Shown: piece after piece, positions 1-15,957 of the stretch
Layout: every line of letters begins with the position of its first letter
Position numbering within the stretch: the first letter of the stretch is position 1
Assembly: GCA_016838845.1 (NCBI GenBank)
Contig: JAEHKV010000156.1
Coordinates: 1-15,957 of the forward strand
Length of the DNA stretch: 15,957 bases
Reading direction: 5' to 3'
Origin: Nitrosopumilales archaeon
Lineage (GTDB): Archaea > Thermoproteota > Nitrososphaeria > Nitrososphaerales > Nitrosopumilaceae
Position numbers and translations under genes: made by a program
Notes under the pieces: generated by a model
The model's input: only the letters and a program-made list of their open reading frames with translations
What the model was told of the DNA's origin: nothing
The model's database searches: none

Positions 1-188
1 GTAAGGCATTTTTGTCCAGGTTCCAATGTTCCTAGTCGCCCATCCATGAGTCCTCCTTGAACAGCCATCCCATCTTCATCATATGTCTCGGGGGCAGTAA
101 TTTCAGCAACTGAATATTTTCTAACTTCAGTTGGAGACCAAACTGAGAATCTTATCGAATCGATTGCTTTAACAGTTTGAACTGACAT
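1..188 (-). CDS. rpoA1: DNA-directed RNA polymerase subunit A' (Rpo1N), N-terminal fragment; gene continues beyond the window start
   Basis: The minus-strand ATG at 188-186 overlaps the rpoB stop (TAATG). My translation is MSVQTVKAIDSIRFSVWSPTEVRKYSVAEITAPETYDEDGMAVQGGLMDGRLGTLEPGQKCLT, with no stop before position 1. It resembles the conserved archaeal A' N-terminus and follows the canonical rpoH-rpoB-rpoA1 order. It is absent from the ORF track because it is open-ended. Confidence 0.88.
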   Translation of the reverse strand, partial: MSVQTVKAIDSIRFSVWSPTEVRKYSVAEITAPETYDEDGMAVQGGLMDGRLGTLEPGQKCL

Positions 189-3100
189 TATACCTTCTCC
201 TTTATCATAAGTCTTGGGGCAATGTTAAGACTTTGCATCTCCTGTAAAAGCAGTTTAAACGCATATGCTACAGAAACTGATGATACCTTAGCTTTGTCGC
301 CACAAACCCTACAAACATACTTTCTTTGTTTGACATCATGATATGCAACCAAGCCACATCTTTCACAGACAAAAATATCAGATTTATCAGATTCGTCTAG
401 TAATCGATCTTTTAGAATCATAGAGGCCCCATAAGCTATCAAACAGTCTCTTTCCATCTCCCCAAATCTTAAACCGCCACCGCGAGCTCTTCCCTCAGTA
501 GGTTGTTTTGTTAACATTTGAACTTGACCTCTTGCCCTAGCATGGATTTTATCAGCTACCATATGGTGTAATTTCTGATAATATACAACTCCAATGAAAA
601 CTTCAACTGGGAAAGATTTTCCAGTTCTTCCGTCGTACATAACTTCTTTTCCTGAATATTTGAAACCAGCATCTTCCATTACATTTTTGACTGCATCAAT
701 TTTTTCTCCTACAAATGCGGAGGCATCAATTTTTCGTCCCCGCAACGCAGCGGCTTTACCAGTAATTGATTCCATAAACATTCCCACAGTCATTCTTGAT
801 GGAAATGCATGTGGGTTGATCAAAACGTCTGGGACAACTCCATCAGCAGTATATGGCAAGTCTTCATTCTTTGCTAAGATTCCAAGAACACCCTTCTGAC
901 CATGTCTAGAAGCAAACTTGTCACCAATTTCTGGAATTCTCATATCTCTAACTCTAATCTTATACATCTTGCCGCCTTCATTGGATTGAGTCATTACGAC
1001 AGTATCAATAACACCAGTTTCTGATGGTCTAACTCCGATTGAGGTATCCCGTCTGTATGGACCGGTGGTCTCAAACTCCCTATATTCTTCCATAAATCTT
1101 GGCGGACTAGTTTTTCCCAGCAAGATATCGCCACCCAGAACTACAGATTCTGATGCAACTACACCATCATCTTCCAACAAACGGTATGCTTTTTCTCCTT
1201 TGTAGCCTCTAATGTTATCTTCAGCATTGGGAATTTCAAACTTGTCACGCATTCCACCAGGATATTGTTTAGCTTCTGCATCATAGATTCTATAAAAGAA
1301 GGTTCTTCCAAGACCTCTATCAACAGCTGCTTGACTCAAAACAATAGCATCTTCAATGTTATATCCATCAAATGGTAAAACTGCAACAACACAATTTTGT
1401 CCAGCAGGCCTATCTTCTAAACCCAATAATTTCATTGCTTTAGTAGAAACAATGGGCGTTTGAGGATAAAGCATGAAATGTTGTCTCACATAAGTGCTAG
1501 TATTCATCATAGGGGTAGAAAATCCTAAACTTTGTTTTGCCATAGCAGATTCATATGTATTTCTTGGAGATTGGTTATGTTCCGGATATGGAATAATTGA
1601 TGCACCAGCGCCCAGAATTGCAGAAGGGAATATTTCCAAATGAGTGTGTTTTTTTGTTTCTTTTTCATCTAGAGTAATATAACAATTTTCTTCTTCATTT
1701 GCATCAATTAGTTCGATGATTCCCATCCTAAGTAGATCATTCCAAGAAAGTAATTTTTTGGTAACTTTACTTAATAATTCTTGAGAAAGCAATGATTTGT
1801 TTTCTTTAATTATGATTAAAGGTCGTAATACTCTTCCAGCATTACAATTTACATAAAGTCTTTTTGTAGCACCTATAATTTCTGATTTGTAAAATGAGAT
1901 TCCTACATGTGGATGAATTTTTGAGCTCCTTCTAAGTTCACGAAGTGACTCGGCTAGTTTTTCGCCTTCTTTATAGTAGCCAATTAATCTTCCATCTACA
2001 AAAACTCTAGTTGCATCTTTTTTTATCTCTTCTTTTGCGTCTAAAAAATGAACTGTGCCCAAATCAAATAGTTTTTCAACAATTTCTTCAGAAGCGACAT
2101 TTACTGAAATTATCGCTGAAAGCGCCAGGTTTTTTACTAATCCACAATTCGATCCCTCTGGAGTTTCACTAGGACAAATTCGTCCAAAGTGTGTAGCGTG
2201 TAAGTCTCTTGCTTCAAAATTAGGTTGTGTCCTACTAAGTGGGGATTGGATTCTTCTCAAGTGACTGATTGTTGAAAGGTAATTGGTTCTATCAAGGAGT
2301 TGAGTAACACCGACTCTACCTCTACCCCAGTTTCCGGTGGCGATTGCATTGTTTAGCTTATCTGAAACAATTCCTGGTCTTATCGCTGCAGCTACTGCGT
2401 TAATTCCACGTTTTTGTCCAGATCGTTCAAGTTGATATTTCATATCTCTAACCAAGTTTCTAAAAGCTGTTCTAAACAAATCAGCTAACATTTGACCTGC
2501 AAATTTGATTACTTTATTTCCATAATGATCTTTATCATCAGGATAAACCCAACCAAGTTTTAATTCAAGTAATTTGCAAGCAGCTTCACCGAGAAATTGC
2601 GCCTTTTCTTTTCTATTCTCTGGATGCTTTCCTAAGTGAGGTAACAAACCCCAGTCCAATAATGTTTCAGCTCTTTTAATTTGGAATTCTTCCAGCATAC
2701 CCGGCGCAATTCGTTTACTAATGTAGACTGTTGCGTCCTTTGCTGTTGGAACATCACCCGCTTTTTCAAAAGAAGCTTCTAACTCATCTTGAATTTCATC
2801 CACAAGTGAAACTGAAGCTGCAATTTCTTTGTCAGATTCTAAACCAAGTGCTCGCATTAAAGTTACAACGGGTATATCTACAGGAGACCCAGGTATTCTT
2901 GCAACAATAAGACCATCATGTTTCATTACTAATTCTAATTTTGCACGATATCCAACAATTGAAGAATAAACTTTGGCTTTGTAAACTATGTTGCCTCCAA
3001 CTGTTTCTTTATCAACAATAATTTTATTATAAGAAAGATCCTCCAATCCAACAATTACTCTTTCTGAACCATTGATTATGAAATATCCACCTGGATCATT

Positions 3101-3535
3101 TGGATCTTCTCCGTGTTCAACAAGCTTTTGAGAAGGGAAATTATGTAAGATACAAGCATTTGAACGCACCATAACTGGAATGTCGCCAATATGAACAAAT
3201 CTAGATTCTAGAATTTTGCCATCTTCAACCACGCTAGCTTCCATCATTACAGGTGAGGAATACGATACATTTCGCAATCTTGCTTCTGCTGGAGTGATGT
3301 GTGTAATGGAACCATCAAGTTCCATCATTCTAGGTTGTTGTAATTTTACTTTACCAAGCTGAATTTTATAAGGATATTCTGCATTTTCAATTTCAATTTG
3401 AGCCACTTCGTTAATGATGCTTTGGAATCCCCTTTCCAAAAATTCGTCAAATGAATTCAAATGTTGACGGGCTATACCTTCTCTTTTAAGAATATCTTGA
3501 ATAATTGCCCATCTTTTGTTTGCTGATTCTGCCAA
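188..3535 (-). CDS. rpoB: DNA-directed RNA polymerase subunit B (Rpo2), unsplit
   Basis: 1115-aa ORF with hallmark second-largest-subunit motifs (SRHGQKG, GGLRFGEMERDCLIAYGA) and a C-terminal Zn-ribbon (CERCGL...CRVCG). It is a single polypeptide rather than B'/B''. The start is TTG at 3535-3533, directly abutting the rpoH stop (TAA TTG). Confidence 0.97.
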   Translation of the reverse strand: MAESANKRWAIIQDILKREGIARQHLNSFDEFLERGFQSIINEVAQIEIENAEYPYKIQLGKVKLQQPRMMELDGSITHITPAEARLRNVSYSSPVMMEASVVEDGKILESRFVHIGDIPVMVRSNACILHNFPSQKLVEHGEDPNDPGGYFIINGSERVIVGLEDLSYNKIIVDKETVGGNIVYKAKVYSSIVGYRAKLELVMKHDGLIVARIPGSPVDIPVVTLMRALGLESDKEIAASVSLVDEIQDELEASFEKAGDVPTAKDATVYISKRIAPGMLEEFQIKRAETLLDWGLLPHLGKHPENRKEKAQFLGEAACKLLELKLGWVYPDDKDHYGNKVIKFAGQMLADLFRTAFRNLVRDMKYQLERSGQKRGINAVAAAIRPGIVSDKLNNAIATGNWGRGRVGVTQLLDRTNYLSTISHLRRIQSPLSRTQPNFEARDLHATHFGRICPSETPEGSNCGLVKNLALSAIISVNVASEEIVEKLFDLGTVHFLDAKEEIKKDATRVFVDGRLIGYYKEGEKLAESLRELRRSSKIHPHVGISFYKSEIIGATKRLYVNCNAGRVLRPLIIIKENKSLLSQELLSKVTKKLLSWNDLLRMGIIELIDANEEENCYITLDEKETKKHTHLEIFPSAILGAGASIIPYPEHNQSPRNTYESAMAKQSLGFSTPMMNTSTYVRQHFMLYPQTPIVSTKAMKLLGLEDRPAGQNCVVAVLPFDGYNIEDAIVLSQAAVDRGLGRTFFYRIYDAEAKQYPGGMRDKFEIPNAEDNIRGYKGEKAYRLLEDDGVVASESVVLGGDILLGKTSPPRFMEEYREFETTGPYRRDTSIGVRPSETGVIDTVVMTQSNEGGKMYKIRVRDMRIPEIGDKFASRHGQKGVLGILAKNEDLPYTADGVVPDVLINPHAFPSRMTVGMFMESITGKAAALRGRKIDASAFVGEKIDAVKNVMEDAGFKYSGKEVMYDGRTGKSFPVEVFIGVVYYQKLHHMVADKIHARARGQVQMLTKQPTEGRARGGGLRFGEMERDCLIAYGASMILKDRLLDESDKSDIFVCERCGLVAYHDVKQRKYVCRVCGDKAKVSSVSVAYAFKLLLQEMQSLNIAPRLMIKEKV

Positions 3536-3787
3536 TTACACTTCCACCACATATCTGTAGTACAAACTGTGGCCAGCAGTACTACTTTTTCTTGTAATTT
3601 TGATCATGTCACCCGGTTTAACGCCTTGACCAATGATTGCAGGATCAGTAACAAAAATCAATGGAAGTTCGGTAAGTTTACAATTGAATTTTATTAAAAT
3701 TTCTTCAGCTTCTTTTTTAGACATTATTTCATGTTTTGGAACATATACATGGTCTGGAACTAGAATGGGGTTTTTTTTAGAGGCCAT
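3536..3787 (-). CDS. rpoH: DNA-directed RNA polymerase subunit H (Rpo5)
   Basis: MASKKNPILVPDHVYVPKHEIMSKKEAEEIL...GDMIKITRKSSTAGHSLYYRYVVEV fits the RpoH/Rpb5 C-terminal-domain pattern, and the gene sits immediately upstream of rpoB. I prefer the ATG at 3787 (83 aa) over the track's 3811, because the only TATA-like box (3815-3825) lies 27-30 nt from 3787 and only about 3-6 nt from 3811. Confidence 0.88.
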   Translation of the reverse strand: MASKKNPILVPDHVYVPKHEIMSKKEAEEILIKFNCKLTELPLIFVTDPAIIGQGVKPGDMIKITRKSSTAGHSLYYRYVVEV

Positions 3788-3814
3788 GTGATAAAACCTC
3801 AAAACTAACATTAG

Positions 3815-3825
3815 CTATAATATAA
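3815..3825 (-). promoter_or_regulatory. Putative TATA box of the rpoH-rpoB-rpoA1 operon
   Basis: The minus strand reads tctattatattatag and ends 27-30 nt upstream of the ATG at 3787. Confidence 0.4.
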
Positions 3826-3929
3826 TAGAGAACAAACAAACAGAAAAAAATCACCGAGAGGTTAATATATATCTAATCTGGCAGCCAGCCAAAAATTCAT
3901 TTTTTTGGTCAAGATTATTTTTCACAACC

Positions 3930-3937
3930 TTAAATAA
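3930..3937 (+). promoter_or_regulatory. Putative TATA box, PEFG paralog 1
   Basis: TTAAATAA, followed by 22 nt and then the ATG at 3960. Confidence 0.4.
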
Positions 3938-3959
3938 TATTAATTGGGGCGTTATCACA

Positions 3960-4775
3960 ATGAGATCTCATTTTCTTGTATTTGCTTTAACTACAATCTT
4001 AGTTCTAAGTATTGGGGTTTCTTCAACATTTGCACTAGAGGAACTAATTGTTGTTACAACTGATAAGACCTCTTATGCTGAAGGAGATACCGTCATAGTT
4101 TCCGGAGAAGTGAGGGAGATTTTGACTGGTTTTCCTGTAACTCTTCAGGTAATAGCTGCTAATGGAAACTTGGTGACTATTGAACAGCTTCAAGTTGGTG
4201 CAGACAGAATGTTTAGCACTACATTAAGTGCTGATGGACCCCTTTGGTCTTCACAGGGCACTTACACTATAAAGGTCCAACATGGAACTGATGCTAGAAC
4301 TGCTGAAACAACATTTGAGTTTGGAGGAACAACAGGTACCGGAACAACGCCAACATTTGGACAATCATTGACTGAGGGGGAATTCGGCTTGACCTATCAA
4401 ATAACTGGTGGGAGTGTTGTTAGTATCATTCCAGATGTTGATCAAAGTTCATTAATTATCGTAATAGAAGCATCAGACGATGGTGAATTAACAATCACAT
4501 TGCCAAGAGAAATAATTGATGCAAAAATTGGTGATGCTGATGATGACTTTTTTGTTTTAGTTGATGCTGAAGAAGTAGACTTTGATGAAATAGTAACTGA
4601 AACTGATAGAACCCTAACAATTGGATTCCTTGCTGGCACTGAAGAAATAGAAATAATTGGCACTTTTGTGATTCCAGAATTTGGTACTATTGCAGCCTTG
4701 ATTCTTGCAGTGGCGATTATATCAATAATTGTGGTTTCTGCCAAGACAAGATTAAGCATAATGCCAAAATACTAG
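3960..4775 (+). CDS. Secreted PEFG-CTERM sorting-domain protein, paralog 1 (N-module + C-module + PEFG anchor)
   Basis: Signal peptide MRSHFLVFALTTILVLSIGVSSTFA. About 90-aa module at aa 28-121 (TDKTSYAEGDTVIVSGEV...NGNLVTIEQLQVGADRMFS...GPLWSSQGTYTIKVQHG). Second module at aa ~141-237 ending EIEIIGTF. C-terminus IPEFGTIAALILAVAIISIIVVSAKTRLSIMPKY, i.e. PEFG, a hydrophobic helix and a basic cluster. Confidence 0.85.
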   Translation: MRSHFLVFALTTILVLSIGVSSTFALEELIVVTTDKTSYAEGDTVIVSGEVREILTGFPVTLQVIAANGNLVTIEQLQVGADRMFSTTLSADGPLWSSQGTYTIKVQHGTDARTAETTFEFGGTTGTGTTPTFGQSLTEGEFGLTYQITGGSVVSIIPDVDQSSLIIVIEASDDGELTITLPREIIDAKIGDADDDFFVLVDAEEVDFDEIVTETDRTLTIGFLAGTEEIEIIGTFVIPEFGTIAALILAVAIISIIVVSAKTRLSIMPKY

Positions 4776-4783
4776 ATCATCAA

Positions 4784-4799
4784 ATTTTTTCATTTTTTT
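4784..4799 (+). terminator. Oligo-T tracts downstream of PEFG paralog 1 (putative archaeal intrinsic terminator)
   Basis: ttttttcattttttt lies directly after the stop codon. Archaeal RNAP terminates at oligo-T runs. The tract overlaps the next gene's upstream promoter region. Confidence 0.35.
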
Positions 4800-4814
4800 A
4801 AATATACATAAATA
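4797..4814 (+). promoter_or_regulatory. Putative BRE/TATA region, PEFG paralog 2
   Basis: TTTAAATATACATAAATA ends 25 nt before the ATG at 4840. It lies within the duplicated block. Confidence 0.45.
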
Positions 4815-4839
4815 CCCTCGTTGTTGCATCTTTGATAAG

Positions 4840-5694
4840 ATGAGTCTTAAAAGACCGACAACGATGTTCGCATTTTTCTTGCTGAGTGTGTCTATCCTTT
4901 CAGGATTTGCATTTCAAGATTTCGCATATGCAGAAACTGGTATGGAAGTATCAGTAAATGCTGATGAGGGCTCTACAACTATTTCAGTGAGTGGCCATAC
5001 AAGTGTTGGAAATAACGACATTACTATTAGGATCCAAGCACCGAATGGCAACATAATCTCGGCATATCAAGTATCACCTAATGCAGATGGTGACTTTATG
5101 AAGGATGTGCAAATAGGTGGTAAGTTATGGAGCCAGGATGGCATGTATACTATAAGAGTTCAACAAGGTTCAAGTTCACTATACAGTTTTAACCTACAAG
5201 CTGAGGTGAATGGGGGAACTACTGTTACAACTTCTGTTTCTGAATCAACACTAGAAGCAGGATTTACTGCTGGAGTTGGTCCCATAATAGGTGGTAAAGC
5301 AGCTACTGGTTTGACAATTGAAGCTGATGCTGTCGAAGGATCAATTACAATAACCATCAATGGTCATACTGATCGTTCTGGTGCAATAACCATTCAAGTA
5401 ATTTCACCAAATGGAAATAGAGTTGATCTTGCTCAAGTAATGCCTGACGCAGATGGTGACTTTACGGCAGAATTTCGTACCGATAGTCCGCTATGGAATC
5501 AAGATGGAGATTATACCATAAATGTACAACAAGGATCAGGTTCGGCATACCAAGATTCAGTAGCAGTGCTAGTTGTTGACGGTGCGGTAATTCCAGAATT
5601 TGGTACTATTGCGGCCTTGATTCTTGCAGTGGCGATTATATCAATAATTGCGGTTTCTGCTAGGACAAAACTAAGCATAATGCCAAAATACTAG
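4840..5694 (+). CDS. Secreted PEFG-CTERM sorting-domain protein, paralog 2 (two tandem N-modules, no C-module)
   Basis: Signal peptide ending FAYA. Two copies of the module: aa ~35-122 (ITIRIQAPNGNIISAYQVSPNADGDFMKDVQIGGKLWSQDGMYTIRVQQG) and aa ~158-246 (ITIQVISPNGNRVDLAQVMPDADGDFTAEFRTDSPLWNQDGDYTINVQQG). C-terminus IPEFGTIAALILAVAIISIIAVSARTKLSIMPKY. Confidence 0.85.
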   Translation: MSLKRPTTMFAFFLLSVSILSGFAFQDFAYAETGMEVSVNADEGSTTISVSGHTSVGNNDITIRIQAPNGNIISAYQVSPNADGDFMKDVQIGGKLWSQDGMYTIRVQQGSSSLYSFNLQAEVNGGTTVTTSVSESTLEAGFTAGVGPIIGGKAATGLTIEADAVEGSITITINGHTDRSGAITIQVISPNGNRVDLAQVMPDADGDFTAEFRTDSPLWNQDGDYTINVQQGSGSAYQDSVAVLVVDGAVIPEFGTIAALILAVAIISIIAVSARTKLSIMPKY

Positions 5695-5703
5695 ATCATC
5701 AAA

Positions 5704-5719
5704 TTTTTTTTATTTTTTT
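5704..5719 (+). terminator. Oligo-T tracts downstream of PEFG paralog 2
   Basis: ttttttttattttttt after the stop codon, duplicated with the element at 4784-4799. Confidence 0.35.
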
Positions 5720-5734
5720 AAATATACATAAATA
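5717..5734 (+). promoter_or_regulatory. Putative BRE/TATA region, PEFG paralog 3
   Basis: An identical TTTAAATATACATAAATA ends 25 nt before the ATG at 5760. Confidence 0.45.
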
Positions 5735-5759
5735 GAGATGGTGCTAAAACGCAAATAAG

Positions 5760-6629
5760 ATGAATGTTCATACCTCGTATGTTTTAATTGCTATTCTGGC
5801 CGCAGTTGCAACCATGTCAATCTCATCTGCTTTTGCACTTGAACAGGCATTTCCTGGTTCCGTAGAAGAAGGAACAATAACAGCTCAACAAACTTTGCTT
5901 GATGAAATACCCATATCTGTTTGGACTGATAGTTCAATCTATGATCATGAAACGGCTATTAATGTTCAAGGCAAAGTAGCTAATACTGGATCAGGCAATG
6001 AAGTTACCTTAAGGGTAATTAGTCCATCTAATAATATAGTTACAGTTGCTCAGCTATCTGTTGATAACAACGGAATGTTTAGTATAACCTTGAGTACTGC
6101 AGGCAACTTGTGGAAATACGATGGTGTTTACACTATTAAAGTTCAGTATGGAGGCGAAGCAGTAAACAACAAAGTTTCTGTGGAACTAACGGGTGGAATT
6201 GCTTATGCTCAAACTACTTCAGAACCAACAGTTGGATGTGGATCTTCTGAACTATCTGCAACTGGAGCTTGTGTGCCTTTCAGCATTTCTGGGGCTACAG
6301 TAACAGGTGCATGGTTTAGTACAGATACAAATTCGCTTACTGTAAAACTCGGAGGAGTTGATGAGGGTATACTCACCGTGGATCCATCAAGCGATGCGAT
6401 TAGAGGCATATTCATGGTTCTAGTTGATGGTCAAGAGTGGGATGATGTAGACATTAATGGAAACGAAGTAACTGTGATGTTTCCAGCTGGAACTGAAGAA
6501 ATCGAGATCATAGGTACTTTCGCAATACCAGAATTTGGTACCATTACAGCCTTGATTCTTGCAGTGGCAATTATATCAATAATTGTGGTTTCTGCCAAGA
6601 CCAGACTAAGCGTAATGCCAAAATTCTAA
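5760..6629 (+). CDS. Secreted PEFG-CTERM sorting-domain protein, paralog 3
   Basis: Signal peptide ending SSAFA. N-module at aa ~51-143 (VTLRVISPSNNIVTVAQLSVDNNGMFSITLSTAGNLWKYDGVYTIKVQYG). A Cys pair (VGCGSS...GACVPF). A divergent C-module ending GTEEIEIIGTF. C-terminus IPEFGTITALILAVAIISIIVVSAKTRLSVMPKF. Confidence 0.85.
   Translation: MNVHTSYVLIAILAAVATMSISSAFALEQAFPGSVEEGTITAQQTLLDEIPISVWTDSSIYDHETAINVQGKVANTGSGNEVTLRVISPSNNIVTVAQLSVDNNGMFSITLSTAGNLWKYDGVYTIKVQYGGEAVNNKVSVELTGGIAYAQTTSEPTVGCGSSELSATGACVPFSISGATVTGAWFSTDTNSLTVKLGGVDEGILTVDPSSDAIRGIFMVLVDGQEWDDVDINGNEVTVMFPAGTEEIEIIGTFAIPEFGTITALILAVAIISIIVVSAKTRLSVMPKF
6525..6629 (+). repeat. Repeat copy C (coding part only) of the sorting-signal block
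   Basis: ataccagaatttggtaccattacagccttgattcttgcagtggcaattatatcaataattgtggtttctgccaagaccagactaagcgtaatgccaaaattctaa is highly similar to 4671-4775. Similarity to paralog 1 extends upstream to about 6486 (GTEEIEIIGTF codons). The downstream intergenic region is not shared. Confidence 0.75.
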
Positions 6630-6669
6630 CTATTCCTTTTTCTATTTTTCAAATCATGCAATAGTAAAG

Positions 6670-6677
6670 GAAATATA
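6670..6677 (+). promoter_or_regulatory. Putative TATA box, PEFG paralog 4
   Basis: GAAATATA, followed by 21 nt and then the GTG at 6699. Confidence 0.3.
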
Positions 6678-6698
6678 CAATTTCCATTCACTCTCCTC

Positions 6699-7505
6699 GT
6701 GAACTCAAAAATTTTCTTTTTTGTGATTATATTGTTTTTTTTCACAACCCCAAGTTTTGCTCAGGAACCTATACTTTCAGTTAATGTATCAAATGATTCA
6801 TTTGAAGAGGGAGATACAATTGTTATTTCTGGAAAAGTATCTATTATTATTCTTGAAACGCCAGTTACCATTCAAATTTTTAATGAAGGCAATCTAATTG
6901 AGATAGCACAGATTGTTGTTGCTCAAGATGGAAGCTTTACACACACTATACTTGCTGAAGGACAATTATGGCAAAATGAAGGCAATTATACGGTTAGAGC
7001 AGCTTATGGAGAGGGCAATATAGCAGAAGCAAGTTTTGAATTTTTTAAACAAATAGCAATTACTGATACGTCAGAATTTTTTGAAGTTGATGCTGGTAGT
7101 TCTGGAACTTTTGATGTTGAATACATCATCAGAGGAGGTACAGTGAAAGATATGATTGTGGATCCAGAAATCTTTGCTCTTATTGTAATTATTGAATCAA
7201 CTGGTGATGGCAGTTTGACACTTGATCTTCCCAGAGTATCAATTGATGCAACAAAGTCAGATGGGTCTGATGATCTTTTTATAATTTTAATTGATGGTAT
7301 TGAAGTTATTTATGATGAATCTATAACTAACGAAAAGACTAGAACAATAACAATTCAATTTGAACAGGGAGATTCAGATATTGAGGTTATTGGTACTTTT
7401 ATTATTCCTGAATTTGGAACAATAGCATCTTTGATTTTAGCTGTGTCTATTATTTCTGTAATTATTTTATCTGCAAAGAAAAAAATGCAAATAGGATTTA
7501 ATTAA
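6699..7505 (+). CDS. Secreted PEFG-CTERM sorting-domain protein, paralog 4 (most divergent)
   Basis: GTG start. Signal peptide MNSKIFFFVIILFFFTTPSFA. N-module at aa ~25-116 (VTIQIFNEGNLIEIAQIVVAQDGSFTHTILAEGQLWQNEGNYTVRAAYG). C-module collinear with paralog 1 (GGTVKDMIVDPE...LTLDLPRVSIDAT...DDLFIILIDGIEV...DIEVIGTF). C-terminus IPEFGTIASLILAVSIISVIILSAKKKMQIGFN. Confidence 0.8.
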   Translation: MNSKIFFFVIILFFFTTPSFAQEPILSVNVSNDSFEEGDTIVISGKVSIIILETPVTIQIFNEGNLIEIAQIVVAQDGSFTHTILAEGQLWQNEGNYTVRAAYGEGNIAEASFEFFKQIAITDTSEFFEVDAGSSGTFDVEYIIRGGTVKDMIVDPEIFALIVIIESTGDGSLTLDLPRVSIDATKSDGSDDLFIILIDGIEVIYDESITNEKTRTITIQFEQGDSDIEVIGTFIIPEFGTIASLILAVSIISVIILSAKKKMQIGFN

Positions 7506-7529
7506 TTAAAAATAAGATTATTGAGATAA

Positions 7530-8330
7530 TCAATCCGCAATTACATTAATCTTCCCTGGTCTATATCCTTCAGGATCAGCAATAACTGATGTAAATCCAA
7601 ATTGTTTTAATTTTGAGTATATTGTATGGAGTATTTTTTTGTTTTTTAATAGGTCTAAGTCGTCTTGCAAAAGTTCTATCTTTGCAATTCCATTGAGATC
7701 TCTTACACGTATATGGTTAACGTTAAGTGTTTTTTTCACAAATTGTTCACTAATCTCAATTCTTAAAAGACGTTCTTGAGTTACACTTTGACCCCAAGGA
7801 ATTCTAGAAGCGAGACAAGAATTTGACGGCTTATCAAAAATTGTCAAACCTACTGTTTTAGCTCCATCTCTTACATCCTTTTTAGAAAATTTAGTCTCAA
7901 CTAGAGGACTTTGAATTCCATTATCTTTCATTGCATTAATTCCTGGACGATAATCATTCAGGTCATCTAGATTGGTTCCATCAACAATTACATCGACTTG
8001 AATTTCTTTTGCAAAATTGTTAAGATGATAAGCAAGCTCGCTCCTACAATGGAAACATCTATTCTTATCATTTCTCACAAAATCCTCATTTTCTAATTCA
8101 TTATATTCAATAGTTTGATGAGAAATACCAATTTCACGACATACTTTTTTTGCTGTGTTTAGTTCTTCTTGAGACAAAGTTTTGTAATCAGCAGTTACTG
8201 CAATGGCCGATTTTCCTAACTTTTGAAATGCTGCATAAGCAACCAAAGCACTATCTACACCACCAGACAAGGCTATGATGACTTTATCTTTATTTTCAAA
8301 CCAGTTTATCAATTCATTTAATTTATTCAT
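7530..8330 (-). CDS. larE: NPN-cofactor biosynthesis sulfur transferase LarE (PP-loop ATP pyrophosphatase family)
   Basis: PP-loop SGGVDS at aa 22-27. LarE-like blocks RCFHCRSEL, DGTNLDDLNDYRPG, SPL and SCLASRIPWG, the last holding the Cys equivalent to the sulfur-donor Cys. 266 aa. The start overlaps the larC stop (ATGA). Confidence 0.85.
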   Translation of the reverse strand: MNKLNELINWFENKDKVIIALSGGVDSALVAYAAFQKLGKSAIAVTADYKTLSQEELNTAKKVCREIGISHQTIEYNELENEDFVRNDKNRCFHCRSELAYHLNNFAKEIQVDVIVDGTNLDDLNDYRPGINAMKDNGIQSPLVETKFSKKDVRDGAKTVGLTIFDKPSNSCLASRIPWGQSVTQERLLRIEISEQFVKKTLNVNHIRVRDLNGIAKIELLQDDLDLLKNKKILHTIYSKLKQFGFTSVIADPEGYRPGKINVIAD

Positions 8331-9553
8331 GTGGAATCCAACTTTTTCTTTACTTGGAATTTGATTAATTCCCCAGTTTCTCTGAAAGATTTATTCAACA
8401 AATTTGAAATTTGTTTTACATCATCAAATTCTAGCTTAAAATTCTTAGAGTCCTTATTAGCAGTTTTATAGTGTATAGTGAAATTTTGGCCATCAATAGT
8501 TACAGGAATTGATTCTAATGATCTTGGTACTATGAAACGTTCTGATGTGCGGACTCGTACGCCCAAAGTTCCTGTTTCACTAATTAACAAATTCATAATA
8601 TCATGAACAGAATTTGAATCACAAATGACAGAAACTAGATTTGTCGGTCTTCCTTTTTTTGTGATTGCATATGAAATTGTGACATCTTTAGCACCTTTAG
8701 ACATTATCTTTTCAATTAAATTTCCTAAAATTTCACCTGATACATCATCAACATTTGTTTCTAAAACTTTTACAGAGTCTTTGACTAGAATATTGGTTTC
8801 TATACCTTGAACTATTTTTAAGACGTTTGAAAATCCTTCAAAGTCTTTTTTTCCAGCTCCATAACCAATTGATTTTACTGTTAGGGAAGGATAAAATTCA
8901 GAACATTCATTTGTTAAACTTACCAACAAGCTTGCACCGGTTGGAGTTGTTAGTTCTTCTTTTGCATTTCCACCATAAATTATAATATTTGAATTTCTAA
9001 AAATTTCAAGAATTGCGCTTGCAGGATTTGAAGTAGTTCCATGAGAGAAAGTAATAGTTCCACCACCTACCGCAACTGGTGATGTAACTATATGATCGTC
9101 AAAAAATTTTAAATCATCTAAAGCAATTGCAGTTCCAATAATATCTACAACAGTATCAATACTTGAAGCTTCATGAAAGTGTACAGACTCTAATGGATAG
9201 CCGTGTATTTTGGATTCAGCTTGCATAAGAACATCAATACTGGATATAGCAAAATTCTTTGCTTTTTCTGAAAGGGTTAGTTTTTTCATAGAATCCTCAA
9301 TGCATTTTTTTATGTCAGCTCCTTTTCTTTCGTGAACTTTTTCATCCACCTCTAGAACAAGTGTTGTGGCCTCAGTTCCATGTTTTTTTACACTTTCAAA
9401 ATCAATTTTTTTAATTTCAGAACCATCTAGAAATTTTTCTGCAGTTTTAATTCCATCAATTATTTTTGATTTATCTGCACCTAAATTTACCAATGCGGAA
9501 AGTAGCATGTCGCCAGAAATACCAGCTATTTGTGGATCTATAACAATTACCAT
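8327..9553 (-). CDS. larC: NPN-cofactor nickel insertase (cyclometallase) LarC, DUF111 family, single unfused-frame ORF
   Basis: N-terminus MVIVIDPQIAGISGDMLLSALVNLGAD is the typical DUF111/LarC opening. 408 aa. Adjacent to and translationally coupled with larE. No frameshift is needed, unlike the split larC1/larC2 of Lactobacillus plantarum. Confidence 0.85.
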   Translation of the reverse strand: MVIVIDPQIAGISGDMLLSALVNLGADKSKIIDGIKTAEKFLDGSEIKKIDFESVKKHGTEATTLVLEVDEKVHERKGADIKKCIEDSMKKLTLSEKAKNFAISSIDVLMQAESKIHGYPLESVHFHEASSIDTVVDIIGTAIALDDLKFFDDHIVTSPVAVGGGTITFSHGTTSNPASAILEIFRNSNIIIYGGNAKEELTTPTGASLLVSLTNECSEFYPSLTVKSIGYGAGKKDFEGFSNVLKIVQGIETNILVKDSVKVLETNVDDVSGEILGNLIEKIMSKGAKDVTISYAITKKGRPTNLVSVICDSNSVHDIMNLLISETGTLGVRVRTSERFIVPRSLESIPVTIDGQNFTIHYKTANKDSKNFKLEFDDVKQISNLLNKSFRETGELIKFQVKKKLDST

Positions 9554-9575
9554 AGAAGGAAATTCAGTAAAAATG

Positions 9576-9583
9576 AATATAAA
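9576..9583 (-). promoter_or_regulatory. Putative TATA box, larC-larE operon
   Basis: The minus strand reads TTTATATT, followed by 22 nt and then the ATG at 9553. Confidence 0.4.
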
Positions 9584-9615
9584 TTCTATTGAAAATTATC
9601 TGACTGTTCATTAGA

Positions 9616-9623
9616 TTTAATTA
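9616..9623 (+). promoter_or_regulatory. Putative TATA box, mdh
   Basis: TTTAATTA, followed by 22 nt and then the ATG at 9646. It sits back-to-back with the larC box inside the 92-nt divergent intergenic region. Confidence 0.4.
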
Positions 9624-9645
9624 TTAATAATTCAGACCGCACTTC

Positions 9646-10560
9646 ATGATTACAATTATTGGTGCTGGGAAGGTAGGTGGGGGTGCTGCATTATTCTCTG
9701 CACTCAGAAATTTAGATGATCAAATTCTTTTGCTGGATATTGTTGAGGGCTTGCCTCAGGGCGAAGCGATGGACATTAACCATGCACTTTCTGAGCAAGG
9801 TATTGATGTTGAGATTAAAGGTTCGAACGATTATTCAGATATGAAAGGCTCGAACATTGTTGTAGTTGTTGCTGGCTTGGGAAGAAAACCTGGAATGACA
9901 AGAATGGATCTCTTGCAAAAAAATGCTGGGATTGTAAAAAGTGTTGTTGAAAATATAAAAAAATATGCAGATAACTCTATGATTATTCCTGTTACAAATC
10001 CTCTTGATCCCATGACCTATATCTGTTACAAGGTTTCCGGTTTTGAAAGAAACAGAGTGTTTGGAATGGGAGGAATGTTAGACATATCTAGATTCAAACA
10101 ATTTATTCATGAAGCAACAGGGCATTCCCGTCATTCAATTCGTGCTTTAGTTATTGGTGAGCATGGTGAAAACATGTTACCGTTACCAAGATTTTCAAGT
10201 GTGTCTGGAATTCCTTTAACCTCATTATTGTCTAAAGAAAAACTTGATGAATTGGTTCAGAATACCCGCAATGTTGCAGCTAAAGTAATAGAACTTAAAG
10301 GAGCAACAGTTCATGCACCAGGCAATGGAATTTCAGCTATCATTGATTCTGTTGTGAATGACAAAAAGCAAGTTTTGCCAATAGCTACCTATCTTGATGG
10401 AGAGTATGGATATTCTGATGTAACTATCGGGGTACCAGCTGTGATAGGAAAAAATGGTGTTGAGAAGATTATTGAATTAGATTTGAACGATGAAGAGAAA
10501 GAGATGTTCAACAAAGGGATTGAAAGTGTCAAAAACGCCATCTCAGGTATTAAAATCTAA
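9646..10560 (+). CDS. mdh: Malate dehydrogenase, LDH-like (NAD-dependent) family
   Basis: Rossmann motif [22 protein letters not shown]. Substrate loop [15 protein letters not shown], with Arg at the position that separates MDH (Arg) from LDH (Gln). NPLDPMTY. Catalytic-His block IGEHGENM. 304 aa. Confidence 0.9.
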
Positions 10561-10564
10561 TTAG

Positions 10565-10572
10565 ATATTTAT
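10565..10572 (+). promoter_or_regulatory. Putative TATA box, larB
   Basis: ATATTTAT, followed by 23 nt and then the TTG at 10596. It lies in the 35-nt mdh-larB spacer. Confidence 0.3.
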
Positions 10573-10595
10573 CCAAAAAGTAGTTAGAGTTTACG

Positions 10596-11375
10596 TTGGA
10601 ATTAGATGAAATTTTAGATTCTGTAAAGGCTGGAAAAGTTTCTAGTGCAAAGGCTCGCAAATTATTGTCATTATATTCAATACAAAAAATTGAGAATTTT
10701 GCTCAGATCGATATTGACCGTAAAAAACGACGTGGAATTCCAGAGGTAGTCTTTGCACAAGACAAACAATTATCTGAAATTAAAAAAATTATTCAAGCTG
10801 TATTAAAAAAATCAAATTCTATTTTGGTTTCAAGGTTGAAGAAAAAAGATGGTGCCAAAATAAAATTATATGCTAAAAAATTAAATCTAAAAATAGATAC
10901 TGGAAAAAAATCTAGCTCGATTCTTTTATACAAAAAACCAATAAAGAATTCTGGTGGCAAAGTAGGAATTCTAAGTGCAGGTTCCTCAGACATTGGTGTC
11001 GCTGAAGAGGCCAGATTAATGTGCCGTGCTATGAATTGTGAATGCGTTTGCAGCTATGATGTTGGAGTAGCTGGCATGCACAGGCTTTTTCCTATACTTA
11101 AGAAGTTCATTTCTAATGATGTTGATTCTGTAATTGTAATAGCTGGAATGGAAGGAGCTTTACCAACATTGGTTTCTTCATTAGTGGATATTCCTGTAAT
11201 TGGAGTTCCAACATCGATTGGTTATGGATATGGGGAAAAAGGAATTGGGGCTTTAGCTGCAATGTTACAAAGCTGCTCATTGGGGTTATCTGTTGTGAAT
11301 ATAGATAATGGAATTGGGGCAGGAGCAGTGGCTGCGAACATAGCTAATAGAGCAAATAGAAATAGAATAAAATAA
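10596..11375 (+). CDS. larB: NPN-cofactor biosynthesis protein LarB (NaAD carboxylase/hydrolase, PurE-like)
   Basis: PurE/AIR-carboxylase-like core (GKVGILSAGSSDIGVAEEARLM...VIVIAGMEGALPTLVSSLVDIPVIGVPTSIGYG), preceded by the ~110-aa N-terminal extension typical of LarB. TTG start; there is no in-frame ATG near the N-terminus. Clustered with larC/larE. Confidence 0.82.
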   Translation: MELDEILDSVKAGKVSSAKARKLLSLYSIQKIENFAQIDIDRKKRRGIPEVVFAQDKQLSEIKKIIQAVLKKSNSILVSRLKKKDGAKIKLYAKKLNLKIDTGKKSSSILLYKKPIKNSGGKVGILSAGSSDIGVAEEARLMCRAMNCECVCSYDVGVAGMHRLFPILKKFISNDVDSVIVIAGMEGALPTLVSSLVDIPVIGVPTSIGYGYGEKGIGALAAMLQSCSLGLSVVNIDNGIGAGAVAANIANRANRNRIK

Positions 11376-11512: not shown

Positions 11513-13081
11513 TTGGCTGGAAAAAGAATTGTTTTAACTGCAGATCGTAGTTTGATGACAAATTATAGAGGCAATTTCCTATATGGTTTCATAGCATGTG
11601 GGCCATACGACGTTCTACCAGAATGGGTTTTTGACAAGGTCTTTTGTCCTCCAGTGGAAACTGATCCCAATACCGGAGAAGTAAAGGTTGCACAAGTAGG
11701 TTTGAGGAGGGTTGAGAGTGCTTTGTTACAAGGTTACAAACGAGATGAGGTTTTTTTAGCTAGTCCTGATTATCTTGAAAAATCTGTTGGGAGTGACACA
11801 AAAGTAGTTGGAATAAATGTTATGGATCCATTAGGGATGGCTCCAGTAACTACCACCATGTCTCCAGAAAGATTATCCTATGTGGCTATGAAGTTCAAAA
11901 AAATGTGTGCACAAATAATTCAGTTGAAAAAGAAATACAATTTTCATGTCGTTGTTGGAGGAAATGGTGCTTGGGAATTAGCGAAGACAGATAGAATGAA
12001 GATTCATGGAATTGATACAGTTGTTGTTGGTGAGGCAGATGAGTTAGCATTAGATTTGTTTAATGATTTAGAAAAAAATGATGCCCCTGAACTAATGCAT
12101 TGTTTTGTAAAAAATATTCAAAATATTCCAATTATAGAAGGACCAACAGTGAATTCATTAATTGAAGCTATGCGAGGTTGTGGAAGAGGCTGTGACTTTT
12201 GTGATGTTAATAAAAGATCCAAGAAGGATCTACCTTTAGAAAGACTTCAGCATGAAGCAAGGATAAATTTGGATTATGGATTTGATTCAATTTGGTTGCA
12301 CTCTGATGAGATGCTACTTTATGGGTGCGATAATAAAGACTTCCAACCAAATTATGATGCAATAATGGAATTATGGAAGGGACTTAAAGGAATTGGCGCA
12401 AACTTTATTGGAACTACACATATGACATTTTCTGGAGTAGTTGCTGACCCAAAACTCATACAGGATATGTCTGAAGTGAATGAAATGCACAATAATGGCA
12501 GATGGCTTTCAACTAATTTGGGAATAGAAACAGTAGCACCTAGAATGGTGGACAAACATCTTGGTGTTAAAACAAAACCATTCTCAAATGATGAATGGGG
12601 ATGGGTTGTAAGAGAGGGCGCTAAAATCTTAAATGAAAATCATTGGTTCCCAGCTGCTACAATCATTATTGGGTGGCCAGATGAAATGCCTGATGAAGTA
12701 CAATACACAATTGATATGATGGGTGACTTTAGAGCAACTAACTTCAGAGGGCTTGTAGCTCCATTGCTCTACCAAGATTTTGGCGAAAAAAATTCCATGC
12801 ATTTTGGTAATCTGAATGAAGCACAGTTTACGCTCTTTTGGAAATGTTGGGAGAATAATTTGAGAGTAATTAATGATATCATTCCAATTATTCTTCGAAA
12901 CAAGACCTATGGGCCACCGATGAAAGTGTTTATGTATGGAATTCTTAAAGTTGGTACTTGGGCAATCATGCGATATTTACGAGGATTGTGTAAAGATCTT
13001 TTCAATGGAAGGACTCCTGATGAGATTATAGAGAAATATGCAAGGAGTCGTTCTGTAACCGCCCCAGTATATACAAAATAA
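11513..13081 (+). CDS. Radical SAM enzyme with N-terminal Rossmann/B12-binding-like domain, substrate unknown
   Basis: CX3CX2C motif CGRGCDFC at Cys223/227/230 (nt 12179-12202). It is preceded by an alpha/beta-like region (KVVGINVMDPLG, HVVVGGNGAWEL, VVVGEADE), as in class-B-like radical SAM proteins. 522 aa, TTG start. No C-terminal SPASM-like Cys cluster. Confidence 0.8.
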   Translation: MAGKRIVLTADRSLMTNYRGNFLYGFIACGPYDVLPEWVFDKVFCPPVETDPNTGEVKVAQVGLRRVESALLQGYKRDEVFLASPDYLEKSVGSDTKVVGINVMDPLGMAPVTTTMSPERLSYVAMKFKKMCAQIIQLKKKYNFHVVVGGNGAWELAKTDRMKIHGIDTVVVGEADELALDLFNDLEKNDAPELMHCFVKNIQNIPIIEGPTVNSLIEAMRGCGRGCDFCDVNKRSKKDLPLERLQHEARINLDYGFDSIWLHSDEMLLYGCDNKDFQPNYDAIMELWKGLKGIGANFIGTTHMTFSGVVADPKLIQDMSEVNEMHNNGRWLSTNLGIETVAPRMVDKHLGVKTKPFSNDEWGWVVREGAKILNENHWFPAATIIIGWPDEMPDEVQYTIDMMGDFRATNFRGLVAPLLYQDFGEKNSMHFGNLNEAQFTLFWKCWENNLRVINDIIPIILRNKTYGPPMKVFMYGILKVGTWAIMRYLRGLCKDLFNGRTPDEIIEKYARSRSVTAPVYTK

Positions 13082-13083
13082 AT

Positions 13084-13407
13084 CTATAATTTTTCTAGTG
13101 CTGCGTCTGCTATGGTATTTCTTTTTGGCGTAATACAGACAAAATAGTTCTTATCTGCTCTTTCAATAGAATCAACTTTTTTGTATGTCTTTGAATTCAT
13201 ATCAAATTCATATATTCCATTTTCAAGATCACCTTTTACATAAATCATCAAATAGCTATCTCCAGTTGCGGGACTCAATGGAATGAATGCCATAACAAAA
13301 CCCTTGTAAGAGTTGACGGGCATCGTGTTTTTCATTGGGGGGGCAGCTGCAGACATGTACATAAAAATATCTTCAATTGTTTCAAATTCCTCATATTCAA
13401 CATGCAT
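13084..13407 (-). CDS. Hypothetical small cytoplasmic protein (107 aa)
   Basis: ORF with no signal peptide or TM segment and no motif I recognise. It lies 53 nt downstream of the CFI-box protein gene on the same strand, and its stop is 2 nt from the convergent radical SAM stop. The coding call rests on ORF length and position only. Confidence 0.45.
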   Translation of the reverse strand: MHVEYEEFETIEDIFMYMSAAAPPMKNTMPVNSYKGFVMAFIPLSPATGDSYLMIYVKGDLENGIYEFDMNSKTYKKVDSIERADKNYFVCITPKRNTIADAALEKL

Positions 13408-13460: not shown

Positions 13461-14491
<1,031 letters not shown>

Positions 14492-14646
14492 TAAGTGAAA
14501 GAAAATTTGACATCATAATGTCTTGATTAAAACTTCCTCTCGTTTTTAAGTAAAAACAAAAAATTTGAAAAGATGATCCTCAAACAGAGAATTTTTTGAA
14601 TTTACCCATACTAGTAATAGTCAGCAATTCCATAAAACATGAAGAA

Positions 14647-15957
14647 ATGTCCATATTTGTTAATAGAACCAAAGTTCTGAAGATTTCTCTTTTTGCAATA
14701 CTTTCGGCTTTTGTAGTGGAATTTGTTTTTGGGGTTTTCACAAATAGTTTAGCGCTTGTTACAGATAGTATTCATGCACTCTTAGATTGTGTTGTGACGA
14801 TTGTTTTGTTAGTAGCTGCAAAAATGGCGATCAAACCTCCTGATGCTGAACACACCTATGGACATGGAAAGGTTGAATCACTTGGTGGTTTGATTGGAGG
14901 AATAGCGATATTGCTAATTGCTGGATTTTTTATTTATGAATCAATTAATAGAATTCAGAGTCCGCCTCCAACTCTATTACCTGGTCTTATTGCCTTAACT
15001 GCTGGATTTTACACCATAGGTGTCGATGTTTTTAGAATCATCCTTCTAAGGAAATCTATCAAAAAAATAGGAGGCACCACGCTTAAAGCTGATTATTACC
15101 ACGCGTTCATGGATTTTGGGTCTACAATGATCGCAATCGTTGGAATAGCTTTAGTTTCATATGGCTTCTATTTGGGAGATTTCATTGCTGCATTAATTCT
15201 TGGAGTAGTTTTAGCTATTCTAAGTTTGAAGCTAATCTATACAGCTGGAATGGATTTGACAGACATTATTTCTCCTGAATTAGTAAAACAGGCAAGACAA
15301 ATTGTTACAAATACTGAAGGGGTTATAGAACTAGGCCCCATACTAATGCGAAGATCTGGCGATACAGTTTTTGCGGATATAACAATATCATTACGAGCCG
15401 ATGTTAGTTTTGATAAAGCACATGAAATTAGTAACAATGTTGAAACTAACATTAAAAATAAAATTCCAAATGCTGCAATTACAATTCATTTCGAACCAAA
15501 TTGGAAAGGAGTGCCACGAAATTCAAAAGTTAATGATATTGTATCATCTATAGATGGGGTGAAAGAGGTTCATAACATCAGTTCCTACAGTTCAGAAGGA
15601 AAGGTCTATCTTAGTTTACATGTAATGGTTGATCAAAAAATTAATCTTGATTCTGCTCATAAAATTTCTGAAATTATAGAAGATAAGATCCAAAAAGCGA
15701 TACCAGAAACTGAACATGTGACTATACATCTAGAACCATTTGTGACTATTCCTAAAAATCTTAAAGTTGAAAGCAAAAAAACGGGTGAGCAAATAAATAA
15801 ACTACTTAATGAATTTGAAGAAATTAAAAAAATTGGAAGAATTGTTACATTGAATTTTAAAGATGTTTTAAAAATTGATATTGATATTTCGTTTGAAAAG
15901 AACTTGTCAATTGAAGAAGTACATGATTTAACTTCTCAGATTGAGCGAAAAATTCGA
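14647..15957 (+). CDS. Cation diffusion facilitator (CDF) family metal transporter, 3' end beyond the window; three tandem cytoplasmic C-terminal domains
   Basis: My translation from the ATG at 14647 is open for 437 codons to the window edge. It is not in the ORF track because it is open-ended. TM2 reads LVTDSIHALLDCV and TM5 reads ADYYHAFMDFGST, the CDF metal-site H/D-xxx-D pairs. HTYGHGKVE loop. These are followed by three collinear ~75-aa CTD-like repeats. Confidence 0.88.
   Translation, partial: MSIFVNRTKVLKISLFAILSAFVVEFVFGVFTNSLALVTDSIHALLDCVVTIVLLVAAKMAIKPPDAEHTYGHGKVESLGGLIGGIAILLIAGFFIYESINRIQSPPPTLLPGLIALTAGFYTIGVDVFRIILLRKSIKKIGGTTLKADYYHAFMDFGSTMIAIVGIALVSYGFYLGDFIAALILGVVLAILSLKLIYTAGMDLTDIISPELVKQARQIVTNTEGVIELGPILMRRSGDTVFADITISLRADVSFDKAHEISNNVETNIKNKIPNAAITIHFEPNWKGVPRNSKVNDIVSSIDGVKEVHNISSYSSEGKVYLSLHVMVDQKINLDSAHKISEIIEDKIQKAIPETEHVTIHLEPFVTIPKNLKVESKKTGEQINKLLNEFEEIKKIGRIVTLNFKDVLKIDIDISFEKNLSIEEVHDLTSQIERKIR

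Follow-up and report, generated by a model that had tools for sequence, protein, structure and literature searches.

Which protein uses the cofactor nickel-pincer nucleotide (NPN) in those genomes, roughly 15%, that encode its three biosynthetic enzymes LarB, LarC and LarE (larBCE) and no lactate racemase LarA, a combination now recognized as a class of its own (PMC11796402), is a question for the field as a whole. It is raised in a particular form by a contig from a Nitrosopumilales metagenome-assembled genome (MAG), 15,957 bp long and referred to below in its entirety as the window (G+C 31–40% in 1-kb windows), where larE, larC and larB enclose a gene for malate dehydrogenase (MDH; mdh). An earlier note, made from the letters of this stretch, described an orphan NPN cluster with mdh standing where larA would be, and considered the NPN-dependent enzyme of ammonia-oxidizing archaea (AOA) to be an open question. 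In the reading that we favour, and regard as probable, these genes make NPN by way of LarB, LarE and LarC, with a LarE of the iron–sulfur cluster type, and MDH is an ordinary enzyme of the tricarboxylic acid (TCA) cycle that happens to sit within an inherited block. AOA are among the most abundant microbes of both ocean and soil. If it is true that they make NPN, it would follow that they need nickel and possess an enzyme activity, neither of which figures in any metabolic model of these organisms. The basic picture of NPN biosynthesis is left unchanged by our analysis, which adds three leads, the first two of them new and modest: a conserved link between mdh and the lar genes, a larC-larE-nifS operon in most relatives, and, as a candidate client of the cofactor, a conserved LarA-like family stripped of its catalytic residues. 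The features at the centre of the locus are as follows:

7530–8330, minus strand: larE (TIGR00268 match)
8327–9553, minus strand: larC (PF01969, TIGR00299 and NF052512 matches)
9554–9645: divergent control region between larC and mdh, 92 nt, with two back-to-back boxes resembling the transcription factor B recognition element (BRE) and TATA box
9646–10560, plus strand: mdh (PRK06223, PF00056 and PF02866 matches)
10561–10595, plus strand: spacer between mdh and larB, 35 nt, with a T-rich BRE/TATA-like box
10596–11375, plus strand: larB, TTG start (NF033503 match)

Identity of the lar and mdh genes and their putative promoters

The gene calls and coordinates of the earlier note hold throughout, and its larB, larC and larE are bona fide members of their families, all of them scoring beyond the curated equivalog cut-offs. 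LarB reaches 245.7 bits against NF033503 (cut-off 175), compared with just 38.6 bits against the PurE model TIGR01162 (cut-off 149.6), and aligns over residues 5–251 with the LarB of Lactiplantibacillus plantarum (7mj0; phmmer E 1.2e-44). Its C-terminal domain is PurE-like and is preceded by an N-terminal extension, and its active-site motif MLQSC, the equivalent of MLNSC in the L. plantarum protein, contains a cysteine (Cys227 here, Cys221 in L. plantarum) that is invariant among 12 distant LarBs. LarC matches PF01969 with 363 bits over residues 4–392 and unites in a single frame a LarC1 part (TIGR00299, 171.7 bits against a cut-off of 90, residues 78–248) and a LarC2 part (NF052512, 107.6 bits against 50, residues 262–380); the full-length LarC 12bi (phmmer E 4.8e-46) and the LarC2 structure 6bwo are both matched. 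The suggestion that the three open reading frames (ORFs) might be reassigned to non-Lar PP-loop, PurE or DUF111 paralogues fails on the large margins by which the equivalog models win, as the two LarB scores illustrate. On these matches, larB is predicted to encode the nicotinic acid adenine dinucleotide (NaAD) C5-carboxylase/hydrolase that opens NPN synthesis by making the mononucleotide of pyridinium-3,5-biscarboxylic acid (P2CMN), and larC a putative CTP-dependent nickel insertase. The stop codon of larC and the start codon of larE share the sequence ATGA on the minus strand (CACATGAATAAA), exactly as had been described, and because of this overlap the two genes are taken to form one operon.

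LarE (TIGR00268, 264.7 bits; cut-off 150) carries the PP-loop motif SGGVDS at residue 22 and three cysteines, Cys92, Cys95 and Cys172, in a CxxC...C arrangement. The LarE of Thermotoga maritima holds a [4Fe-4S] cluster by means of Cys92, Cys95 and Cys172 (PMC9283937), and the closest solved relative of the present protein is 8cnz (E 9.5e-36), with which both the CxxC pair and the third cysteine align. The cysteine positions and the PP-loop (SGGxDS) are thereby shared with the [4Fe-4S] LarE proteins of T. maritima and Methanococcus maripaludis (8cnz), whereas the L. plantarum LarE (5udq, E 9e-32) has no CxxC and reads WYYAKK where the archaeal protein reads CFHC. These correspondences point to an ATP-dependent sulfur insertase of the [4Fe-4S]-cluster type, which would act catalytically and not sacrificially. 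The sacrificial L. plantarum type, with its single active-site cysteine and no CxxC, was considered and set aside on the presence of CFHC, and since CFHC replaces WYYAKK the word "sacrificial" in the NCBIfam product name is not transferable to this protein.

The genes next to larE bear on its sulfur supply. Directly 3' of larE in 63 of 78 evaluable related loci lies a gene for a NifS/IscS-type cysteine desulfurase (TIGR03402, 517 bits), so arranged as to give a larC-larE-nifS operon (for example at L001:12021–13181, where L001, like the other L numbers used below, is our label for a locus). This pairing fits a desulfurase-fed [4Fe-4S] LarE and differs from the situation in T. maritima, whose cysteine desulfurase genes lie far from larE. 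The window departs from most Nitrosopumilaceae in having no nifS-type gene beside larE (the gap is 7506–7529); the gene is likewise missing there in the Nitrosopumilaceae loci L003, L012 (Nitrosopelagicus), L015, L093 and L095 and in the Nitrososphaeraceae-type locus L086, and L002 carries a frameshifted copy. Given this absence, we infer that the sulfur for LarE must here derive from a desulfurase encoded elsewhere.

MDH scores 396.4 against PRK06223 (cut-off 283) and matches both PF00056 and PF02866, with a score slightly under the cut-off for the stricter bacterial equivalog TIGR01763 (332 against 351.85). Its best matches in the PDB have E values of 7e-93 to 3e-92, no unusual insertions are present, and the alignment with the Aeropyrum pernix MDH 2d4a runs over the full length (phmmer E 2.6e-92). 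The NAD-binding motifs are GAGKVG (GxGxxG) and LLDI, the latter with the aspartate for the adenosine ribose; the catalytic set comprises TRMDL (Arg109), LDISR (Asp168/Arg171) and GEHG (His195); and the MDH-specific arginine (Arg102) is found in GRKPGM at residues 79–84, which, together with PRK06223, bears out the earlier description of the protein as a malate dehydrogenase resembling lactate dehydrogenase (LDH). With the tetrameric LDH-like MDHs of A. pernix (2d4a) and Chloroflexus (1guy) it shares the full-length alignment, Arg102, the catalytic residues and the GxGxxG motif with its aspartate; nothing in the sequence sets it apart from them, and only its conserved position among cofactor-biosynthesis genes is unusual. 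The mdh product looks, by sequence, like an ordinary NAD-dependent LDH-like L-malate dehydrogenase, and it presumably does not depend on NPN. To place it "where larA would be" was an over-reading, as all NAD-binding and catalytic residues are kept and both mdh and larB have boxes of their own.

These boxes were found by aligning some 80–90 related loci at their start codons. In those loci the stretch from about -33 to -15 is conserved before both genes of the divergent pair, as TTAGATTTAATTA for mdh and as GAATTTATATGCATTTTT for larC, and the back-to-back TATA boxes proposed for the divergent region therefore go beyond what chance would produce in AT-rich DNA; the length of that region, given as 92 nt, is also correct, and the corresponding gap is 87–92 nt in most Nitrosopumilaceae. 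The gap between mdh and larB, 32–48 nt in all related loci, contains the larB box TTAGAT(A/T)TTTATC (TTAGATATTTATC in the window); counted from the start of larB, the consensus at about -30 to -22 is TTTTTTtAt. A further conserved box, AAACGATATATAG, precedes the gene for a radical S-adenosylmethionine (SAM) protein downstream of larB. The T-rich box of the mdh–larB gap is likely to act as a separate promoter for larB, to terminate mdh transcripts as an oligo-T stretch, or to do both. The boxes lie about 15–33 nt from the start codons, a distance that for the two in the divergent region suggests leaderless or short-leader transcripts, and their distribution points to promoters of their own for mdh and for larB, leaving larC-larE as the sole clear operon.

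Put together as a pathway, LarB would carboxylate and hydrolyse NaAD to P2CMN; a [4Fe-4S]-type LarE would then insert two sulfurs catalytically, its donor in most relatives being the NifS-type desulfurase encoded after larE and in this organism one encoded elsewhere; and the fused LarC would insert nickel. As to expression, larC-larE, mdh and larB would make up three transcription units or more, each preceded by a conserved BRE/TATA-like box of its own and each probably giving a separate transcript. The enzyme that uses NPN would be encoded away from the locus, and MDH would be no substitute for LarA.

The mdh–lar block across archaea

Whether mdh keeps its place beside larB and larC in related organisms was left to be seen by the earlier note, and the adjacency proves to be conserved within the family and beyond it. 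When each species of the genera Nitrosopumilus, Nitrosarchaeum, Nitrosotenuis, Nitrosopelagicus and Nitrosotalea is represented by one genome, mdh adjoins larB in all 77 evaluable Nitrosopumilaceae species loci, the divergent pair larC and mdh is adjacent in 67 of 69, and larB adjoins the radical-SAM gene in 56 of 58. The mdh–lar counts say little by themselves, because synteny in this family extends over the entire region, and the more informative comparisons are those with metagenomic loci, whose taxonomic labels are inferred from LarB phylogeny and neighbouring genes. On a Nitrososphaeraceae-type contig larE-larC, divergent from mdh-larB, lies between an acetyl-CoA carboxylase/AhpC region and an rpL18-S5-L30-L15-secY array, a setting that has no further gene in common with the window; in L090 and L091 mdh-larB stands upstream of rpL18-S5-L30-L15-secY with larC-larE absent beside it.

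When metagenomes were scanned with a profile of distant LarBs and a neighbour-joining LarB tree was built, all mdh-adjacent larB genes fell into one AOA-type clade; near none of the other prokaryotic larB genes of that scan, about 60 loci, was mdh found, and for this reason the mdh–larB link is to be seen as specific and not generic. Outside the AOA-type clade, in a separate archaeal LarB lineage represented by L087 and L168, mdh is followed by larC and glyA in one direction, divergent from larB. In L087 ("Nitrososphaerales archaeon", 3648–5802) mdh overlaps the co-directional larC by 11 nt, with glyA, the gene for serine hydroxymethyltransferase (SHMT), next in line, and larB is 4 kb off, with genes for electron-transfer flavoprotein (ETF) alpha/beta and an ETF-quinone oxidoreductase (ETF-QO)-like protein in between; the mdh/larC unit of L168 spans 7670–9840 on a contig that also encodes a TackOD1 protein. 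The linkage has been lost in the Nitrososphaeraceae loci L084 and L085, where larB stands beside rpL18 without mdh, and in the AOA-related L171 (4150–16801), where larB is divergent from purK-purE and mdh is absent. Two complete Nitrosopumilus chromosomes, L025 (OZ253552.1) and L069 (OZ244155.1), have mdh, larB and the radical-SAM gene intact, with no larC-larE in the approximately 9 kb fetched upstream of mdh, and a Methanomethylicia larB locus and one other archaeal larB locus have neither mdh nor other lar genes nearby.

The block in which larE-larC diverges from mdh-larB is of long standing and has been passed down within Nitrososphaeria, and the retention of mdh beside one or other lar gene through several rearrangements is suggestive. 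A functional link between mdh and the lar genes is accordingly possible, a matter that sequence does not decide; we found no publication linking mdh to lar genes in archaea. L171 also has a gene for a PEFG-type protein, an rpoH/rpoB pair with 66–75% identity, in which rpoB is split into two ORFs, and, 3 kb downstream, the same radical-SAM gene as the window.

LarA-like proteins and the possible users of NPN

Pfam scans of all ORFs for PF09861 (Lar_N) and PF21113 (LarA_C) detected no LarA-type ORF in the window, and tblastn with five queries (L. plantarum LarA and representatives of groups 11, 12, 13 and 14) found none within 10 kb on either side of larB in 80 Nitrosopumilaceae species. At E<1e-3 the same search, which included no canonical-LarA positive control, returned nothing from the window or from about 170 related loci except the Group 12 locus L083. 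Both searches support the statement that the window has no LarA-type gene. The word "orphan", on the other hand, overstates the case, given that the remote LarA-like Group 12 is already listed for AOA: Dataset S2 of Desguin et al. 2020 assigns Nmar_0290, NKOR_01295, NSED_01400, CENSYa_1687 and Ngar_c34640 to thaumarchaeal LarA Group 12 (PMC7583248), and the Nitrososphaera gargensis member (Ngar_c34640/LarAH12), studied as a refolded protein, showed no activity in 7 assays (Desguin et al. 2020). Kerou et al. 2021 described, from sediment AOA clades only, a protein closer to LarA (32% identity with the L. plantarum enzyme), and had already annotated larB and larC in AOA (PMC8397731). COG3875 is recorded in 3 of 13 Nitrososphaerota, and soil AOA MAGs are without Lar. 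Published work thus deals with much of what the earlier note called an open question, the NPN-dependent enzyme of AOA.

Typical AOA genomes hold no LarA-superfamily relative other than Group 12, and sequence comparison makes it the sole candidate related to known NPN clients there. At the LarA positions D72, R75, H108, H174, K184 and H200 the residues of its Nitrosopumilus members are D, I, L, D/N, T and A; D72 is kept, and the losses comprise R75, the two catalytic histidines, the lysine that tethers the cofactor and the histidine that binds nickel. The family has no Pfam Lar_N match, stays under the cut-off for PF21113 (E 1.3e-3) and reaches Mar2 with a phmmer E of 0.037. Profile–profile comparison with LarA (hhalign) gives a probability of 93.5% and an E value of 2.3e-7 over the C-terminal domain only, which is homologous to LarA_C. 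There are 1442 matches to Group 12, with 86–96% identity among the top 120, these being within Nitrosopumilus, and NCBI names the protein "transcriptional regulator". The gene, exemplified by L083:10001–11083 on a contig of Ca. Nitrosopumilus koreensis, lies outside the window and far from the lar genes, in a nuo/pyrE/M50-protease context that matches that of a 361-aa arCOG02046 protein in the tables of Kerou et al. (PMC8397731). An AlphaFold2 model has a predicted local distance difference test (pLDDT) score of 35, too low to be of use, and was obtained from a shallow alignment of 20 sequences that are 86–94% identical to the first.

AOA belong to the known class of organisms with larBCE and no canonical larA, and are set apart within it by this degenerate LarA-like family. 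They share the full biosynthetic set and the lack of a canonical LarA with Synechocystis sp. PCC 6803 and most cyanobacteria, and differ from them in having the remote Group 12 proteins and mdh-linked lar genes; moreover, cyanobacterial larBCE from LarA-less genomes have been demonstrated to make NPN (PMC11796402), whereas in AOA the case is made from genes. A full larBCE set without a canonical LarA implies a further NPN-dependent protein. With the canonical lactate racemase system of L. plantarum, the larA-larB-larC1/C2-larD-larE operon, the three biosynthetic enzymes are shared, but the archaeal genes have no larA, larD or nickel importer beside them, LarC is fused and not divided into larC1 and larC2, LarE has the CxxC...C cluster motif in place of a single sacrificial Cys176, and the genes are distributed over divergent, separately promoted units with mdh between them.

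How mdh is to be understood in this setting depends on which of several explanations is accepted. One alternative, to which we give roughly a quarter of our confidence, is that NPN serves a malate, oxaloacetate or other 2-hydroxyacid enzyme that works with MDH, for instance through a malate or 2-hydroxyglutarate racemase-like activity of Group 12 or of an unrecognized protein, and that selection keeps mdh beside the lar genes. The occurrence of mdh next to a lar gene in four contexts (that of the Nitrosopumilaceae, the Nitrososphaeraceae-type block, mdh-larB alone and mdh-larC), the spacing of about 33–37 nt between mdh and larB that is kept across orders, and the lack of mdh beside the approximately 60 other prokaryotic larB genes all speak for it, as does the fact that malate racemases form the largest LarA group (PMC11770544); genomic context was likewise the basis on which Desguin et al. 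2020 predicted substrates. Against this stand the loss of the adjacency in L084, L085 and L171, the separate promoter box of each gene, and the location of the pair near a ribosomal-protein/secY array (Nitrososphaerales-type) or near rpoH-rpoB (Nitrosopumilaceae), where unrelated housekeeping genes stay linked. Furthermore, MDH adjoins biosynthetic genes and no candidate NPN enzyme, Group 12 is without the catalytic residues, and its N. gargensis member had no malate racemase activity, although that protein was refolded. The more specific proposal that the mdh–lar link is older than the AOA radiation and reflects the use of NPN by a non-canonical malate, oxaloacetate or 2-hydroxyacid enzyme, be it Group 12 with a new mode of cofactor binding or an unrecognized partner of MDH, is in our estimation somewhat more doubtful still; if true, it would represent a major cellular use of nickel in urease-negative AOA. 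Two further explanations carry far less weight. LarA and MDH both perform hydride chemistry on 2-hydroxyacids, and in many lineages it is mdh that lies between larC and larB, so that MDH itself might be imagined as a non-LarA client in which NPN replaces or joins NAD(H) in hydride transfer on malate. Non-LarA NPN-binding proteins have indeed been postulated (PMC11796402), yet we consider this the least credible of the explanations: MDH retains the full dinucleotide signature, including the aspartate for an adenosine ribose that NPN does not possess, as well as the full catalytic set and a close match to characterized NAD-MDHs, and lineages in which mdh is split from the lar genes retain larB. 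Hardly more credible is the idea that the Lar homologues make no NPN, being either relics or enzymes for another product, be it a different thio-cofactor or a dithiocarboxylate pyridinium compound that carries no metal or a metal other than nickel. In its favour are the lack of a known canonical client in most AOA, the loss of the nifS partner beside larE in this lineage, and the presence of mdh-larB without larC-larE within about 9 kb upstream of mdh in L025 and L069; it is opposed by the intactness of all three Lar proteins, with their equivalog scores and conserved active-site residues, by the retention of the Lar genes in essentially all sampled Nitrosopumilaceae species, and by the production of NPN by the cyanobacterial homologues from LarA-less genomes.

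The preferred explanation, NPN synthesis with MDH as an inherited neighbour, has difficulties of its own. The linkage goes beyond what simple inertia would lead one to expect and hints at a functional tie, surviving as it does the rearrangements that leave mdh with larB in L090/L091 and with larC in L087/L168. The search for LarA in this organism covers the 15,957-bp contig, and a homologue may be encoded elsewhere in the genome; the synthesis of NPN by AOA is itself deduced from genes. The promoter boxes are recognized by conservation, the T-rich one could act as terminator, promoter or both, and mdh and larB may be co-transcribed by read-through.

Neighbouring genes

The remainder of the window is made up of the following features:

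188–3535, minus strand: rpoB
3536–3811, minus strand: rpoH
3960–7505, plus strand: four PEFG-CTERM paralogues
11513–13081, plus strand: radical-SAM gene (522 aa, TTG start)
13084–13407, minus strand: 107-codon ORF without a family match
13461–14453, minus strand: gene for a CFI-box-CTERM protein
14569–15957, plus strand: gene for a cation diffusion facilitator (CDF) metal transporter, truncated at the window end (PF01545, PF16916)

The canonical lar operon, in which larA and a gene for nickel uptake or regulation stand beside larBCE, is not present in the window. No regulator was found in it, in agreement with the earlier note, and Rfam and tRNA scans of the window gave no matches. The accompanying statement that there is no nickel transporter is right in that no nickel importer of a known type is encoded, and incomplete in that a CDF metal transporter (Cation_efflux PF01545, 147 bits; ZT_dimer PF16916, 145 bits) lies at the right edge. 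Such a transporter is found downstream of larB in 33 of the 39 Nitrosopumilaceae loci with more than 8 kb of flank, mostly 6.3–8.4 kb away, and at 3.2 kb in the window and in L027; in L001 a gene for a protein of about 1064 aa separates it from the CFI-box gene. As a part of the lar system it was rejected, its distance from larB being variable and its metal specificity unassigned.

The radical-SAM protein, with its CxxxCxxC motif at CGRGCDFC, is 83–90% identical across Nitrosopumilaceae genera (85–90% in most loci) and 75% identical in L171; no homologue in the PDB reaches E<=0.01, and its NCBIfam similarity is weak (TIGR04013). Its gene, too, was rejected as a component of the lar system, for it is not beside larB in Nitrososphaerales-type loci. 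Convergent with it is the 107-codon ORF, whose position and sequence are kept across Nitrosopumilaceae (59–83% identity). The CFI-box-CTERM protein contains a long (PE)n repeat that derives from simple repeat DNA and diverges fast (37–68% identity) between conserved neighbours. At the other end of the window, the four PEFG-CTERM paralogues are tandem secreted proteins of 268–289 aa, each with a C-terminal PEFG-CTERM sorting signal of the thaumarchaeal kind, and the slot that they occupy differs among relatives in copy number and content.

Two non-AOA archaeal loci in which no LarA was seen encode, within about 4 kb of larB, proteins of the DUF362 family (PF04015), which belongs to the same Pfam clan as the N-terminal domain of LarA (L168:13618–14709, minus strand; L169:7945–8838, plus strand), and in L169 a CDF transporter fused to a helix-turn-helix (HTH) domain is encoded 1.6 kb from larB.

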